Origin: an uncultured Ectothiorhodospiraceae bacterium
GTDB taxonomy: Bacteria; Pseudomonadota; Gammaproteobacteria; UBA9214
Reading direction: 5' to 3'
Assembly (NCBI GenBank): GCA_964443845.1
Contig: CAYUFA010000001.1
Location: forward strand, 47,025-111,024
DNA: 64,000 bases
How positions within the stretch are numbered: position 1 is the first letter of the stretch; each line of letters opens with the position of its first letter. Positions 29,384-34,047 of this stretch are shown here, one piece after another. Both the position numbers and the translations under genes were made by a program. Below the pieces are notes generated by a model. That model had not been told where the DNA came from. It did no database searches and saw only the letters and a list, made by a program, of their open reading frames with translations.

Positions 29384-30136
29384 TCAGTCAAGGTAGCGCG
29401 CCTGCCATTCCAGGAACCTGGCGTGCGCCCAGGCAGCGTAGGATTCCCTGTCGCTGAAAGCGGCGGGGTCGAAGGGATCGTAGATATAGAAATTGACGCG
29501 GTTATTGCCCGTGGTACTCATGTGCCAGATCTTGTGCAGCAGTGTCTGCGGGTCGCGCCACTCGAAATCGTCCTGAGACTCGTAGTGCAGGAACACGGGC
29601 AGTATCGGAATCCCGGTGCGCAGCGAAATATCGAATGCGCCGTACCGGAACGTCTCGAATATGCGTCTGCCCTTGCAGCCACCCTCGGGGTAGAGCGCGA
29701 TATTCTTGCCACTGCGCAACTCGCGGTCGATTGCGTCCGCCGCGGCATTGCGGGACTCTTTCGATTCCCGGTGTACGTACAGGGTGCCGGCCGCCATGCT
29801 GATCCGGCCAACGAGCCACCAGTCCTGCACCTCGATCTTGGCCAGGGAATGCACGGGAAACACGGCGGGTATCCCGATATCCTCGAATGCGGAGGGATGA
29901 TTGGCGATCAGGATGTACTGCTCCGGCAGGCCCTTGCAGGTGTATTTCTGGTGCACGCGCAGGTCGATACCCAGCGCGCGCACGAAACTGCGCGACCAGA
30001 ACCGGAACAACGTGAAATAAAACGACCTGGTCAACGCACGTGGCAGCCAGGAGAGCAGGTACATCACCAGCGTGAACACACCCAGCTCGATCCAGCACCA
30101 CAGGCGCCAGGCAACCCTGCATACGAACCGGATCAA
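29384..30136 (-). CDS. Lysophospholipid/1-acyl-sn-glycerol-3-phosphate acyltransferase family (PlsC-like) membrane protein
   Basis: NHPSAFEDI (HX4D-type acyltransferase motif) and ALYPEGG (PEG motif) are present, with an N-terminal TM. Confidence 0.75.
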   Translation of the reverse strand: MIRFVCRVAWRLWCWIELGVFTLVMYLLSWLPRALTRSFYFTLFRFWSRSFVRALGIDLRVHQKYTCKGLPEQYILIANHPSAFEDIGIPAVFPVHSLAKIEVQDWWLVGRISMAAGTLYVHRESKESRNAAADAIDRELRSGKNIALYPEGGCKGRRIFETFRYGAFDISLRTGIPILPVFLHYESQDDFEWRDPQTLLHKIWHMSTTGNNRVNFYIYDPFDPAAFSDRESYAAWAHARFLEWQARYLD

Positions 30137-30225
30137 GGATCCACTCCTGCCACCTGAATTTCACCCCATTATGACCCCTTGTCGGCCAGCCGGGAAAGAT
30201 TTACAGGTGGAACCTGCCGGCACGT

Positions 30226-31044
30226 TCAGTGAATTTCCGCCAGCAGCTGCGCGATCACCGTGCCATCGGCCGGCTCCAGCCCGTGCGGGGCAGGCAGCGT
30301 GACCAGCCTGGACCGGCCACGCAGCACAGGCACGTTGTTCATGTCCTGGCTGTAGGCAGGCACGACGTAGTCTCCGGGACCGTTGGAGGCCCGTACCACG
30401 GAAACATACTGGATATCCGGATGCGGCTGGCTGTTCAGCCAGTACAGGAAGGTCCCGGGTCGTGCCCGGACGAGGTCAACGTACAGGCTGCGCGAACGCA
30501 TGGCCGTGTGATAGGTGCTGCCGCCCAGGAAATCGGTCAGCAGCGACAACGGGAACGGGATATCGGTGGCATCGAGCGCCTCTTCCGCCCGGCCGGTGCC
30601 GAGGTGCGGACTGGCGATCGTGACCAGCGCCTTCACGTTGGTGGCGCCACCGCGGACCAGCGCAGCCCGCGCCACCACGCCGCCGGCAGAGTGCCCGACC
30701 AGGACGATCGGTTCCGCCGGATGCCTGGCGGTGATCGATGCCAGGATCTCCTTCAGCAGGTACACCTGGACCAGGATCGGTGCCTCGGACGGCAGGTCGA
30801 CGGAATAGAACTTGTCCTTGCCCGTTGCGCCCTGCCCGGGGACCAGCCGGATGCCACCCGGTCCGGCAAGATAGACGCCGGCCGGCTGCCAGCCCTGCTG
30901 TTGCAGGATCGAGGTGACACCACTGCGATCCCAGGATCCCGCATCCCCCAGGTAGCCATGGACCAGCAATACCACCTCTGCACGCGCCAGCTGCGACAGC
31001 AGCGCAGTGCACAGCGCCAGTACCAACAGTACACTCTTCTTCAT
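30226..31044 (-). CDS. Secreted alpha/beta-hydrolase, lipase/esterase-like
   Basis: The signal peptide MKKSVLLVLALCTALLSQLARA precedes VVLLVHGYLG...IVLVGHSAGG (nucleophile elbow GHSAG). Confidence 0.75.
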   Translation of the reverse strand: MKKSVLLVLALCTALLSQLARAEVVLLVHGYLGDAGSWDRSGVTSILQQQGWQPAGVYLAGPGGIRLVPGQGATGKDKFYSVDLPSEAPILVQVYLLKEILASITARHPAEPIVLVGHSAGGVVARAALVRGGATNVKALVTIASPHLGTGRAEEALDATDIPFPLSLLTDFLGGSTYHTAMRSRSLYVDLVRARPGTFLYWLNSQPHPDIQYVSVVRASNGPGDYVVPAYSQDMNNVPVLRGRSRLVTLPAPHGLEPADGTVIAQLLAEIH

Positions 31045-31622
31045 AACCCACCTGCCTTGTTCATCGCGGTTGCTCCGATTGCCCGGCACCGACAGCGCGC
31101 AAGCAACGCACTTCCTGCCCGCTGCGCTTCTCCCGGTTGCCGTACCACTGCCACCCACCCCCGCTACATGACACAGAGTCAGCTCCCGGCCGGTAGCACC
31201 TGGCAGACAGGACACGGTCTCCAACCCTGGCGCACGTGCAACCCTCAGCCGCTGCCCGGCCGTAGAAGAGCGGTCTGGCAGGGACGATGTCTAGTATATT
31301 AGAAAATGCTTAAATACTCAACTGATGGCCCGTCCCGCCACCGGTACGGCGCTCTCTGCATTTGTTTTTGCCTTTACATGAACTTAGCGATGGATTATTA
31401 CCCAAAACCGATCCGTCAAAACAATGGCTTAGCGTCGGCGTCCCGGTGTATCGTGATATTTATATATTAAACAGTGTGTTATGAGTTGACGCGCGAGTGC
31501 GGAAAAAATAATTTTAGCGCCTTTTGAATATATAAAAATTACCCGATTCCGATATACCTGCATTATCAGCCCCCTACACACGCCCGCCGGAAACCCCCCG
31601 AATTTCCGTCAATCAATTGTGG

Positions 31623-31653
31623 TTGACAGGCCCCGGCCCAGAAGGCGTAATCA
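31623..31653 (+). promoter_or_regulatory. Sigma-70-like promoter (TTGACA -35, 17–19 nt spacer, CGTAAT/TAATCA -10) inside an AT-rich islet
   Basis: TTGACAggccccggcccagaaggCGTAATCA read from the sequence, about 40 nt upstream of a TTG start with an AGGAG RBS. Confidence 0.4.
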
Positions 31654-31694
31654 TTACCAATTCATTGATCGAACCTTGTTCCCAGGAGTGGCTC

Positions 31695-31889
31695 TTGGAA
31701 AACATAACCTTCGATGTTGATGAGTTGTCCCGACTGGACGAGGTGCAACAGGCACGACGCCTCGAAGAGGCGCAGCGCCGGATCGATGAAGTGCAACGTG
31801 CTGCCGCTGGCGATCCCGACTCACTTCGGTGGGTCCAACAGCAGCGACAATACCTAGTGGATATGCAGCATTTGATATTTACGTGTTAG
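31695..31889 (+). CDS. Small predicted coiled-coil protein (64 aa from the TTG start; the track ORF extends back to 31617)
   Basis: AGGAG then 6 nt then TTG. Sequence: MENITFDVDELSRLDEVQQARRLEEAQRRIDEVQRAAAGDPDSLRWVQQQRQYLVDMQHLIFTC. It ends at a strong intrinsic terminator. Local GC is about 45%, against about 65% for the flanks. Confidence 0.45.
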   Translation: MENITFDVDELSRLDEVQQARRLEEAQRRIDEVQRAAAGDPDSLRWVQQQRQYLVDMQHLIFTC

Positions 31890-31911
31890 CCCGACACGAA
31901 CCTCCATTTAC

Positions 31912-31940
31912 CAACCCGCCCAGCCTGGCGGGTTTTTTTT
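31912..31940 (+). terminator. Rho-independent terminator
   Basis: CCCGCCCAGCCTGGCGGG hairpin followed by TTTTTTTT. Confidence 0.8.
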
Positions 31941-32030
31941 GTCCCGCGTCCGCCCCGGCAGGCGCCGGACTCCCAATCCGCCGTCACCACGAGTACCCTC
32001 GAAAGAACGAATCCGCGCCTCGAGACATGC

Positions 32031-32522
32031 ATGCAGTGCTGGCAGGCCAATGAACTATTACTGTTGCTCGTTGCAGTCAACGGGATGCCCGTCCTCGTGG
32101 GGATACTGGCGGGTACCTGGCTGGATACACCCCTCGACGGAGGCAAGGTGTTACGGGACGGTTCTCGCCTGTTTGGTCCGTCCAAGACCCTGCGCGGACT
32201 GGCGATCGGTATCCTGGCTGGCGCGCTGGCCGCACCCCTGGCCGGGCTGGATGGCAGCTCGGGTGCCGCGTTCGGAGCTCTGTCGATGCTCGGCGATCTC
32301 GGCACCAGCTTCGTGAAACGGCGCCTCGGCTACCCGTCCAGTGATTCGCGTCCCCTGCTCGACCAGTTGCCGGAATGCCTGCTGCCCATGGTGATGCTCA
32401 AACCGCTGCTGGATACCGGATTTTCCGAGATCCTGGCCGCCACGGCCGCTTTTACCGTCCTCGACCTGCTGATCACCCGGTTCCTGCGCCGGCTCAGGCC
32501 GCATGCAGGTGATGCAGGGTGA
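32031..32522 (+). CDS. CDP-alcohol/CDP-diglyceride-synthase-like (CarS/DUF46-like) membrane protein
   Basis: Multi-TM protein with GDLGTSFVKRRLGYPSSDSRPLLDQLPE, resembling the CTP-transferase signature GDLxxSxxKRxxG. Confidence 0.55.
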   Translation: MQCWQANELLLLLVAVNGMPVLVGILAGTWLDTPLDGGKVLRDGSRLFGPSKTLRGLAIGILAGALAAPLAGLDGSSGAAFGALSMLGDLGTSFVKRRLGYPSSDSRPLLDQLPECLLPMVMLKPLLDTGFSEILAATAAFTVLDLLITRFLRRLRPHAGDAG

Positions 32523-33489
32523 TCTCCGGCGGACAGTTCAGCCGGATGTCCGCCACGCACACGCCGGAGCCGACCGAGGTATACCCCTGCATGGACAGGT
32601 AGCGCCAGGCACCCTTGCAGAATTCCCGCCGGCAGGCCACGTTGCACATCACGGCGACGCCCCCCGGCAGGCAGATCTGTCCGCCGTGGGTATGTCCGCA
32701 CAGCAGCAGGTCGAAATCCGCGTGCGCCGCCGCGCGGTAGATCTCCGGACTGTGCGCCAGCAGGATCGATACGGCACCATCCGGTATGGCATCCGCCGCT
32801 TTCTCCAGGTTGTCCGCCCGGTAATAATGGGGGTCATCGATACCGGCGAGATAGATACGCGCCCCGTCCCGCTCCAGCACCACGTGTTCATTCATCAGCG
32901 TGTGGATTCCCATCGCTTCCATGGCCGGTACCATGCTGATGCTGTCATGGTTACCGAGCACGGCGTACACCGCCTCACCAAGCTGCGTGCGCACCTGGCG
33001 CAGCCCGTCCAGGGCCGGCTGGCACGGACCGAACGTTTCTGCGCGGTAATCCCCCGTAAGCACACAGACGTCGTAATCCAGCGCACGCACGGCCGTTGCC
33101 AGAACATGCGGAAAATCCGGCGCCATGTCCAGGTGCAGATCGGAAACATGCAGCAGGGTGTATCCCTCGAACGAGGCCGGCAGTCCGTCCACGTGGATGT
33201 GGTTGTGGCGCACCTGGATGCGGCGCGCGCTGCGGCGGCCGTAGGCCTGCAACAGCACCAGCTGGAACATCAGGCGCAGCAACGGCCGCATGGAGCGGAC
33301 ATTCTCGATATGAAAGAAATTTCTTCCCTGTCCGAACCGCTGGTGTTCGTAGGCCCGTTCCATGCCGAGCCGCTGGCGCAGGTGAATTCTCCCGACACGG
33401 GACTGCAGCACGGAGAGGGTTTGCTCATCGATCGAATTCGGCTGCATCCGCGGATTGTGGGTTGGTGCCGCCCGGTTTTCAATCCGCAT
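32494..33489 (-). CDS. Calcineurin-like metallophosphoesterase
   Basis: The ATG at 33489 has a GGGAGG RBS. Motifs LHVSDLHLD, GDY, GNHD, GHTHGGQ are present. Confidence 0.8.
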   Translation of the reverse strand: MRIENRAAPTHNPRMQPNSIDEQTLSVLQSRVGRIHLRQRLGMERAYEHQRFGQGRNFFHIENVRSMRPLLRLMFQLVLLQAYGRRSARRIQVRHNHIHVDGLPASFEGYTLLHVSDLHLDMAPDFPHVLATAVRALDYDVCVLTGDYRAETFGPCQPALDGLRQVRTQLGEAVYAVLGNHDSISMVPAMEAMGIHTLMNEHVVLERDGARIYLAGIDDPHYYRADNLEKAADAIPDGAVSILLAHSPEIYRAAAHADFDLLLCGHTHGGQICLPGGVAVMCNVACRREFCKGAWRYLSMQGYTSVGSGVCVADIRLNCPPEITLHHLHAA

Positions 33490-33822
33490 CCGGTCCTCCC
33501 GGTTTTGCAAGCGGTGCAGGGTTCCACTCGCCGAGCCTCCGGCGGACTGCCTTCCAGGGCTCATTGCGCGGCTGCCCTCCTGCCCGACCGGTGTTGACCT
33601 GGCCGATGCGCGCCATGCCTGCCGGGTTGCCGACAGGGACCCGCAACCCGCCTGGTCAGGAGGCCGCGCATCACACCCGCCACGCAACCGCAGGGAATCC
33701 ATGCGTGCCGCAGAGCACAGACTCCTCCGGACAGTAATGGCATATGAAATGCATGGTTTATACCGAGCTCCCTGCCACCACATCCTGTGCAGGACACCCT
33801 GGGGAATAATGGAGGTATCGGC

Positions 33823-34047
33823 ATGAAAACACTTGAACTTCAGTTAATTACAGTTGGACTCGACGATGGTAAGCAGGGTGTCTTCGTGGGGTTTCCGCTG
33901 GTGACAAGCCAGTCGGCGGAAGAATGTGGCCAGGTCGAAAATATCTGGTTTTCCAATATAAAAGAAGTACCTGACAGCCTTACCATGCAGGAATTGCTGG
34001 CGCTGATCGGCAAGCAGCTGTTCGACAAGCTGGCCACCCTGCAATAG
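33823..34047 (+). CDS. Hypothetical small protein (74 aa), lower GC than its surroundings
   Basis: A strong GGAGG RBS 7 nt before the ATG. MKTLELQLITVGLDDGKQGVFVGFPLVTSQSAEECGQVENIWFSNIKEVPDSLTMQELLALIGKQLFDKLATLQ. Confidence 0.5.
   Translation: MKTLELQLITVGLDDGKQGVFVGFPLVTSQSAEECGQVENIWFSNIKEVPDSLTMQELLALIGKQLFDKLATLQ

Follow-up and report, generated by a model that had tools for sequence, protein, structure and literature searches.

A small-protein gene of uncultured Gammaproteobacteria whose transcript appears to be constrained as RNA

Introduction

The small proteins encoded by dual-function RNAs are, overall, 15–43 amino acids (aa) long. The concept of the dual-function RNA has been set out with examples (PMC12612679), and two other articles add further ones (PMC12310071; PMC8672173); the sizes given are 26 aa for delta-haemolysin, 29 aa for VcdP and 15 aa for SpfP. 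Here we set against these systems an unannotated gene for a 64-aa protein at 31695–31889 (+) of a 64,000-nucleotide (nt) stretch of DNA, called the window below, from an uncultured Ectothiorhodospiraceae bacterium (contig CAYUFA010000001.1 of assembly GCA_964443845.1, positions 47,025 to 111,024). Like SgrS/SgrT, RNAIII/delta-haemolysin, SR1/SR1P, VcdRP/VcdP and Spot 42/SpfP, this gene would give a short transcript with its own terminator and a small open reading frame (ORF), and like theirs the transcript appears to be conserved in sequence and structure beyond coding needs. It differs from them in that the 64-codon ORF fills ~70% of the transcript, and whereas the base-pairing region of most known dual-function RNAs lies outside the ORF, the constrained RNA elements here overlap the coding sequence.

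CpxQ (from cpxP), DapZ and SdhX are Hfq-dependent small RNAs (sRNAs) derived from 3′ untranslated regions (3′UTRs). Another is GlnZ from glnA (PMC9731577). The small gene resembles these in having a conserved, single-stranded, seed-like stretch just upstream of its own terminator and long U-run, and in that its conservation ends exactly at the terminator. It departs from them in its putative seed, CCUCC, which is of a generic anti-Shine-Dalgarno kind and not specific to a target. By analogy the gene works most like a dual-function RNA or an mRNA bearing a 3′UTR-derived sRNA; this is the closest likeness, and we do not claim membership in that class for it.

The small gene and its signals are conserved across related genomes

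The elements of the small gene are as follows.

31608–31651 (+): predicted promoter, GTCAA-N4-TTGTGGTTGACA and GGCGTAAT, both blocks invariant in 24 loci
31623–31628 and 31646–31651 (+): -35 box TTGACA and -10 box CGTAAT with a 17-nt spacer, within TTGTGGTTGACA and GGCGTAAT
31657–31694 (+): 5′UTR, with UCAUUGAUC at 31662–31670 (5′ arm of helix H1) and Shine-Dalgarno sequence AGGAG at 31684–31688, six bases before the TTG at 31695
31695–31889 (+): coding sequence for 64 aa, TTG start, stop codon TAG at 31887–31889, product MENITFDVDELSRLDEVQQARRLEEAQRRIDEVQRAAAGDPDSLRWVQQQRQYLVDMQHLIFTC
31887–31912 (+): near-invariant 3′UTR TAGCCCGACACGAACCUCCAUU, with anti-Shine-Dalgarno-like CCUCC at 31901–31905, predicted single-stranded
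31913–31940 (+): intrinsic terminator (helix H8), AACCCGCC-CAGCCU-GGCGGGUU followed by U8, stem 31913–31920 with 31927–31934

An original prediction for this DNA had described a self-contained mini-gene and had proposed comparing the region across related genomes. This comparison was run, and the small gene was found at the same position in 24/24 genome loci, always in the order lipase-like hydrolase gene (−), intergenic region, small gene (+), CarS-like gene (+), metallophosphoesterase gene (−). The mini-gene description stands, as every one of its parts is kept in the relatives: the putative promoter, the ribosome-binding site, the ORF and the terminator. In the alignment profile conservation begins at ~31526, extends through the final T of the terminator and then drops abruptly from 0.85 to 0.41. 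The predicted signals (TTGACA-N17-CGTAAT, AGGAG-N6-TTG, the 64-aa ORF and the terminator) are all present, with coordinates one base off. From the window sequence alone these signals are not beyond chance (one promoter-like site against 0.7 expected from shuffles, and two terminator-like sites against 1.1); it is the comparison with relatives that decides.

The start of transcription is predicted at ~31657–31659. The -10 box matches the consensus at 4/6 positions and has G rather than A at position 2, which is why the promoter scan omits this site. The block GTCAA-N4-TTGT(G/T)GTTGACA occurs once in the window and is kept upstream of distant homologs (36–39% protein identity) in loci L025, L029 and L032. 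At the other end of the gene, the terminator DNA reads AACCCGCC-CAGCCT-GGCGGGTT at 31913–31934 and then T8, giving an 8-bp stem with six G-C pairs and a 6-nt loop. Comparison shows that the small gene has its own conserved promoter, of predicted sigma-70 type, together with upstream footprints and an intrinsic terminator.

The 64-codon ORF is conserved as a coding sequence

A DNA alignment was built from the 49 distinct sequences of 24 genome and 27 metagenome loci. Every one of these sequences (49/49) has frame 0 open, against at most 15 for any other frame, and the minimum substitution counts at codon positions 1, 2 and 3 are 58, 37 and 88. The ratio of nonsynonymous to synonymous differences (pN/pS) relative to the window sequence is ~0.2–0.5. 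The position of the start codon is fixed (TTG in 19/23 sequences, ATG in 4/23), with GGAG 6–9 nt upstream at a spacing that is the same in nearly all of the 24 loci.

A word-seeded search covering 5.8 billion proteins found 96 homologous clusters, nearly all of exactly 64 aa and 72–91% identical; all of them stem from uncultured Gammaproteobacteria, through metagenomes or genomes assembled from metagenomes. When 1.84 billion cluster representatives were searched exhaustively with a HMMER profile, the search returned only 22 clusters (at 50% identity), with complete members of 60–67 aa and no larger protein carrying the domain among the 22. The distant homologs P0103, P0108 and P0112 (36–39% identity) are 64–67 aa long, keep the pattern of helices and hydrophobic residues, and have the polar residues D7, Q19, E24, D31, R35 and R51 in common with the rest of the family. 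Comparison of these sequences shows the 64-codon ORF to encode what appears to be a real, vertically inherited small protein, belonging to a narrow orphan family that, so far as these searches reach, is limited to uncultured Gammaproteobacteria carrying sulfur-globule-protein (sgp) genes. On these sequence data we take it for a new and so far unannotated family of small-protein genes, possibly dual-function RNAs.

The 64-aa protein has no Pfam or NCBIfam family at E ≤ 0.1 and no PHROGs or PADLOC match, and a PDB sequence search returned low-complexity helical matches only. Many members (e.g., P0013, P0024 and P0027) carry the JGI/IMG label “DNA-binding SARP family transcriptional activator”. 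Identity as a SARP or BTAD protein was rejected: no Pfam or NCBIfam family was found at the threshold just given, the PDB sequence matches (E ≤ 10) included no SARP chain, and we take 64 aa to be too short for a BTAD or winged-helix DNA-binding domain. The SARP label looks like a propagated mis-annotation. A relation to ribosomal protein uL29 was rejected for want of sequence homology. A 90-aa reading extended upstream (31617–31889) was also set aside; the residues that look “conserved” in it, WLT and GVI, simply translate the -35 and -10 boxes, and the extension shows indels and frame changes between loci. A LYRM2-like match appeared with this extended reading only (14.7 bits against a cut-off of 26.8) and was disregarded.

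The transcript appears to be conserved beyond its coding needs

Nucleotide identity of the small gene was 71–93% where the lipase, CarS-like and phosphoesterase genes gave 55–78%. The proportion of synonymous differences (pS) was 0.18–0.52, against 0.47–0.79 in the lipase, CarS-like, phosphoesterase and acyltransferase genes, and so two- to threefold lower. The GC content of third codon positions (GC3) is 0.56, against 0.75–0.82 in the neighboring genes. Codons CGA51, CTA54 and CAA34 are the same in 23/23 sequences, and ATA61 is the same in 22/23; in the neighboring genes each of these codons makes up 1–8% of its synonymous set (CGA and CTA 1% each). GCT36, CGT35 and TGT64 are likewise fixed in 22–23 of the 23 sequences. 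Codon optimization was rejected as the source of this synonymous constraint, since the invariant codons are the rare ones, and so was an overlapping or antisense ORF, as none is conserved in an alternative frame or on the other strand.

Downstream of the ORF, the 22 nt after the stop, TAGCCC(G/A)ACACCAACCTCC(A/C/T)TT, are near-invariant in ~48 close loci and recognizable in L053 and L029. Mean column identity in the 3′UTR is 0.84, against 0.41 beyond the terminator.

RNAalifold, run on the 49 sequences, predicted 43 pairs in eight helices with 99% of cells paired, a figure that falls to 32–46% when the structure is slid by 1–3 columns. Pairs with changes on both sides numbered seven, compared with 1.0 ± 0.8 in column shuffles, of which 0/500 reached seven. 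The fold of the window sequence has z = −3.36, with 0/200 shuffles folding as well. In single-sequence minimum-free-energy folds H1 is present in the window, L017 and L053, and H5–H8 in the window and L017. The helices that carry most of the detail, besides the terminator listed above, are these.

31662–31670 with 31781–31789 (GAUCGAUGA) (+): H1, long-range helix from the 5′UTR to codons 29–32, eight pairs, 100% of cells paired
31759–31763 with 31767–31771 (+): H5, hairpin GCCUC GAA GAGGC in codons 22–26, two compensated pairs, 98% of cells paired
31798–31804 (codons 35–37) with 31865–31871 (codons 58–59) (+): H6, GUGCUGC with GCAGCAU
31883–31887 with 31893–31897 (+): H7, hairpin GUGUU-AGCCC-GACAC spanning the stop codon, compensated in L047

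In H1 the informative pair is G-C in 44 sequences, G-U in four and A-U in one. In H6 the pair 157/226 (alignment A5) reads G-C in 41, G-U in two and A-U in six, and is maintained although Ala36 is replaced by Thr and His59 by Tyr or Cys, both non-synonymous changes. For H7, the change of Cys64 to Tyr in L047 (TGT to TAT) is matched in the 3′UTR by GACAC to AATAC, and an alternation of U-G and U-A splits the sequences 25/24. The terminator is present in 49/49 sequences, with two compensated pairs. Pairing of the gene’s own Shine-Dalgarno sequence with the 3′UTR CCUCC was seen by RNAalifold with 20 sequences (4 bp, no covariation) and was rejected, being gone with 49.

Taken by comparison, then, the transcript of ~285 nt appears constrained as RNA besides its constraint as a message for protein. 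We infer this from the low pS despite rare A/U-ending codons, the near-invariant 3′UTR and the compensated helices, and we regard this comparative evidence as unusually clear.

The Rfam scan gave no match at gathering threshold anywhere in the window, and a scan for tRNA and tmRNA found none. With a gathering score of 40, the OmrA-B model (RF00079) reached 26 bits in the window and 30.5 in L047; in 11 other relatives it gave no match, and it was rejected. It aligns end to end with the last 88 nt of the small-gene transcript (31853–31940), with a CCYAGWGG-like 5′ end, a central hairpin and ACCAACC-GC...GC-GGUUUUUUUU at the terminator. OmrA and OmrB are, however, free-standing enterobacterial genes, unlike the 3′ end of the 64-aa gene. 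Other relatives match P9, Hrs1 or SorX as weakly, and leader models are also below threshold. As the 3′-end matches are inconsistent between relatives, we judge from the sequences that they are a generic hairpin-plus-terminator resemblance.

The product is predicted to fold as a helical hairpin

The 64-aa protein (7.7 kDa) is acidic and hydrophilic, with a pI of 4.6 and a grand average of hydropathy (GRAVY) of −0.76, and has neither a signal peptide nor Gly/Tyr repeats. By comparison of its sequences it would be cytoplasmic. An AlphaFold2 model made with a 35-sequence alignment gave a helical hairpin with a pLDDT of 89.7; a short helix at residues 8–12 precedes two longer ones at 16–36 and 41–63, joined by a DDPDS-type turn.

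The model recalls the Taz1 dimerization domain, the PscE/YscE co-chaperones of type III secretion and IcmR, to which the 64-aa protein has 10–18% identity with Foldseek E > 1; the type III or type IV secretion context of such co-chaperones is absent at the locus. Rop, which was not among the listed fold matches, is a comparable helical hairpin. The likeness to helical-hairpin modules is, on the model, a resemblance of fold and not homology. By analogy with other helical hairpins of 60–70 residues, the protein probably acts by dimerizing or by binding a partner protein. A small regulatory protein, one of several roles in the original prediction, is still the most plausible one for the product.

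The AT-rich DNA upstream is linked to a sulfur-globule-protein gene

Upstream of the small gene, three further features were located.

31526–31577 (+): upstream footprints GAATATATAAAAATTACCCGAT at 31526–31547, GATATACCTGCATTATCAG at 31551–31569 and CCTAC at 31573–31577, from the 24-locus alignment and its conservation profile
31453–31542 (no strand): AT-rich inverted repeat, arms 31453–31474 and 31521–31542, 82% complementary, from a repeat scan
31285–31321 (−): residual sgp-type promoter with a leader of ~10–20 nt, -35 box TTGAGT at 31321–31316, 17-nt spacer, -10 box TATACT at 31298–31293

The intergenic region measures 510–650 bp in the subclade of the window, and ~940–1970 bp in the other genome loci with both flanks present (L007–L024). 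The larger regions hold a divergent gene whose secreted product is rich in Gly and Tyr and matches Pfam SGP (PF17228) at E 1e-9, above the curated cut-off; most relatives have this divergent sgp gene, which was found in at least 31 loci. The block at 31285–31321, the only promoter-like site that the scan reports in 30900–32300, is conserved in the 24 loci and lies there just upstream of the divergent sgp.

Loss of sgp from this genome was considered and ruled out, the gene being present at 25140–25499 (+). Its 119-aa product is Gly/Tyr-rich, has a signal peptide and matches PF17228 above threshold. It is preceded by an AT-rich patch (from 24960) with the same promoter block at 25047, TTGCTTATTTAAGC...TATATT...ATCGTCC, which can also be written TTGCTTATTTAAG-N-TATATT or, in a longer form, TTGCTTATTTAAGCGTATACTTATATATT. 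The residual promoter at 31321–31285 is a degenerate near-copy of this one and now faces the lipase gene (start 31044). From comparison of the loci, the AT-rich islet appears to be the control region from which sgp and the small gene were ancestrally read in opposite directions; the sgp of this lineage now lies ~6 kb away, with its old promoter left behind.

The product of 25140–25499 and the divergent gene of the relatives are secreted and Gly/Tyr-rich like the sulfur globule proteins (sgpA/B/C, PF17228), which have been described as envelope proteins of the sulfur globules of Allochromatium (PMC10386293). The 64-aa protein does not itself belong to the Sgp proteins, and its link to sgp is genomic only, by way of the common divergent regulatory region.

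The footprints at 31526–31577 are presumed, from their conservation, to be binding sites for regulators. Their motif is unique in the window except for one intergenic copy with two mismatches at 45773–45790 (−). The inverted repeat contains a weak IHF-like block (~31469–31481) and an A/T tract, and is partly conserved in the 24 loci; several relatives have exact WATCAANNNNTTR sites aligned to the IHF-like block, whose reading as IHF is suggested by the consensus. Compared with the Fur, PhoB, PdhR/GntR and IHF consensus sequences, the upstream blocks gave no convincing match beyond this weak block.

This region had been described as an AT-rich islet of 40–45% GC, free of ORFs of 60 aa or more at 31260–31616. 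The low GC is confirmed, at 0.496 for 31260–31940 against 0.642 for the window, but the figure fits the non-coding part only (0.457 at 31260–31616, 0.54 at 31617–31940). No ORF of 60 aa or more lies in 31303–31616, but a shadow ORF of 357 aa, read antisense to the lipase gene, reaches 31302, where it ends; the longest local ORFs are of 54 and 50 aa. The tiny ORFs named at 31325–31381 and 31391–31471 exist but are unsupported as genes, because conservation in the 24-locus alignment is lowest there and indels are frequent. What had been overlooked is that this DNA appears to be a conserved divergent regulatory region linked to an sgp gene; nor could the apparent RNA-level constraint on the transcript be seen from the sequence of the window. 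On the sequence comparisons, the low GC is accounted for by regulatory DNA and a gene of unusual codon usage, and not by foreign origin.

Across the window, 400-nt segments with less than 50% GC are confined to three places: 24751–25200, 31201–31800 and 62551–63250. The third is accounted for by a gene for a 456-aa membrane protein (61828–63198) that by eye resembles NhaA-type Na+/H+ antiporters. A further AT-rich dip (GC 0.47–0.51) at 33787–34047 contains an 86-aa ORF with no Pfam family, which is kept in relatives at 58–86% aa identity and 0.63–0.83 nt identity, with synonymous divergence below that of the surrounding genes in several loci. This ORF may be another small gene with extra constraint.

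The small gene is inherited with its neighborhood

In the distant homologs too the CarS-like gene lies downstream of the small gene on the same strand, and the phosphoesterase gene is convergent. Nucleotide identity of the small gene tracks that of the neighboring phosphoesterase gene (Spearman rho 0.82). No flanking repeats were found around it, and no relatives of it in viral contigs, phage genomes or plasmids.

The neighborhood at 29384–33420 of the window has a lipid flavor: a PlsC-type acyltransferase, a secreted PGAP1-like alpha/beta hydrolase, the CarS-like protein and a membrane metallophosphoesterase. CarS-like denotes a membrane protein of the CDP-archaeol-synthase family, and this bacterial copy stays beside the small gene even in deeply diverged loci. 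In L029 (6325–9556) and L032 (6466–9676) the two are separated by a PCMT-like methyltransferase gene and a gene for an 814–824-aa protein with no Pfam family, all on the same strand; a DUF6394 gene follows the phosphoesterase gene in both. These PCMT-like, 814–824-aa and DUF6394 genes could define a larger functional cluster. Three records (L007, L013 and L016; CAVYIJ010000006.1, JABDRC010000115.1 and CAWKAE010000003.1) are titled “Halobacteria archaeon” and have a fully syntenic gammaproteobacterial locus including sgp. These labels are almost certainly wrong.

Lasting linkage to sgp on one side, and to the CarS-like and convergent metallophosphoesterase genes on the other, leads us to propose that the physiological role of the small gene is probably tied to sulfur-globule or envelope-lipid physiology.

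Discussion

The reading that we favor, and hold to be reasonably probable, is that the small-protein gene is real and that its transcript has an added function at the RNA level. The structured mRNA, with its CCUCC exposed between the stop-codon hairpin and the terminator, would probably control its own stability or translation, and the helix that closes the 5′ end, together with the internal helices, would probably set mRNA stability or translation. The exposed CCUCC may in addition act in trans in the manner of a 3′UTR-derived sRNA, which would make the transcript a dual-function RNA. For such trans-acting riboregulation by the small-gene transcript our expectation is low. We hold as a speculative proposal, and an unlikely one, that the ~285-nt mRNA represents a new kind of dual-function RNA in sulfur-oxidizing Gammaproteobacteria, encoding a helical-hairpin regulator and carrying a riboregulator in its 3′ third. 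That third would comprise the ultra-conserved codons 50–64, the stop-codon hairpin, the exposed CACC-AA-CCUCCUU and the terminator, and would act processed or as part of the full-length RNA. As a mimic of the 16S anti-Shine-Dalgarno sequence, CACC-AA-CCUCCUU would occlude the ribosome-binding sites of target mRNAs, and protein and RNA arms would be co-regulated with synthesis of the sulfur-globule envelope through the common divergent control region.

Several observations weigh against this reading. Covariation is thin, at about one evolutionary event per helix, the sequences being so conserved, and the structure was derived from the same alignment in which covariation was counted. The distant loci L025, L029 and L032 have no visible H1, H6 or H7, and the RNA layer may for that reason be specific to the close clade. 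The CCUCC can pair with just 4–5 nt of the gene’s own ribosome-binding site. Fold matches of the protein are generic (5–18% identity, Foldseek E > 1) and carry no specific functional information. Finally, the linkage to sgp, the CarS-like gene and the phosphoesterase gene could be plain inherited synteny within one clade.

The strongest alternative, less probable than the favored reading but to be taken seriously, is an ordinary small-protein gene whose structure and 3′UTR act only in cis, on stability, protection of the 5′ end and efficiency of translation. A helix at the 5′ end protects an mRNA against decay that depends on that end, and H1 closes the 5′ end in the predicted structure. All of the conserved helices lie inside the one transcript, no Rfam sRNA family is reached at threshold, and the distant homologs keep the protein without the structure. 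Hard to explain in cis, however, are the invariant single-stranded codons 50–57 (CAGCGACAAUACCUAGUGGAUAUG) and the 3′UTR CCCGACACCAACCUCC, both of which lie outside the predicted helices.

Far less probable is a constraint at the level of DNA, with an intragenic operator for the regulator that binds upstream and the two sites cooperating by looping. lacO2 within lacZ and galOI within galE are intragenic operators of this type. The footprint GATATACCTGCATT (31551–31568) does resemble an intragenic GATATGCAGCATT (31860–31872, codons 56–60), so that GATAT-N1-2-CAGCATT recurs at −143 and +165 of the start codon, ~308 bp apart, with one further and more degenerate match in ~364 kb (window plus loci); a 16-nt direct repeat (TGATATTTA...) is also common to 31454, 31526 and 31873. 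This recurrence may reflect an operator repeat or be accidental. In the L022/L054–L061 clade the intragenic copy has gone (GAGATGCAGTACC) while the H6 pairing of the same bases is compensated, and because these loci lose the motif yet keep H6 we favor the RNA reading; an operator also leaves the 3′UTR, H1 and H7 unexplained.

That the locus is a non-coding small RNA, with the 64-codon ORF incidental to it, is very hard to credit. Nucleotide conservation is high throughout, the periodicity of per-column identity is weak (0.90, 0.92 and 0.83 by codon position), and the build of promoter, structured body of ~285 nt and terminator is that of an sRNA, down to the sub-threshold OmrA-B match at 26 bits. 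The reading frame alone, however, is open in every aligned sequence, the substitutions have the coding pattern given above, and the ribosome-binding site and the position of the TTG/ATG start are conserved. Homologs with DNA diverged beyond recognition keep a 64–67-codon ORF with the same residue pattern, and the confident helical-hairpin model fits a folded protein product.

No more tenable is a leader ORF with an attenuator that controls read-through into the CarS-like gene, a variant of the leader-peptide-like element once suggested for this DNA. In every locus examined the small ORF and its terminator occur together with a co-directional CarS-like gene, either right next to them or beyond two inserted genes, and weak matches to Leu, Phe and Trp leaders were obtained. 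These leader models nevertheless score 18–20 bits against thresholds of 41–55. The ORF has 64 codons, is under purifying selection over all 64 residues and has no run of regulatory codons; no antiterminator pairing rivals the terminator in the consensus or minimum-free-energy folds, and the DNA from the terminator to the CarS-like gene is unconserved (0.41).

The remnant of a mobile insertion or a toxin, both also suggested originally, or more broadly a selfish module of toxin-antitoxin type, is effectively refuted: GC is low and codon usage atypical (GC3 of 0.56, compared with ~0.8), as in a foreign insertion, but the gene holds a fixed position in 24/24 loci with the same synteny, without flanking repeats or viral, phage or plasmid relatives, it diverges in step with host genes, and its acidic, hydrophilic product has no PHROG or PADLOC family and no partner gene, the unit being monocistronic with no partner ORF conserved in other frames, on which grounds a type I toxin was rejected as well.

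We return to the favored reading, a real small-protein gene with an added RNA-level function. Nearly all that is known of small proteins and dual-function RNAs still comes from a handful of model organisms. The present family comes from uncultured sediment Gammaproteobacteria, and here comparison alone points to selection on both protein and RNA. It also corrects the impression of foreign DNA that the AT-rich patch gives. Even on the conservative reading, in which the RNA acts in cis, the invariant rare codons and the compensation across non-synonymous sites expose an RNA constraint inside a gene. If the dual-function proposal were true, this would be a dual-function transcript with an unusually long coding part, and it would offer a first regulatory handle on the sulfur-globule-associated loci of these bacteria.

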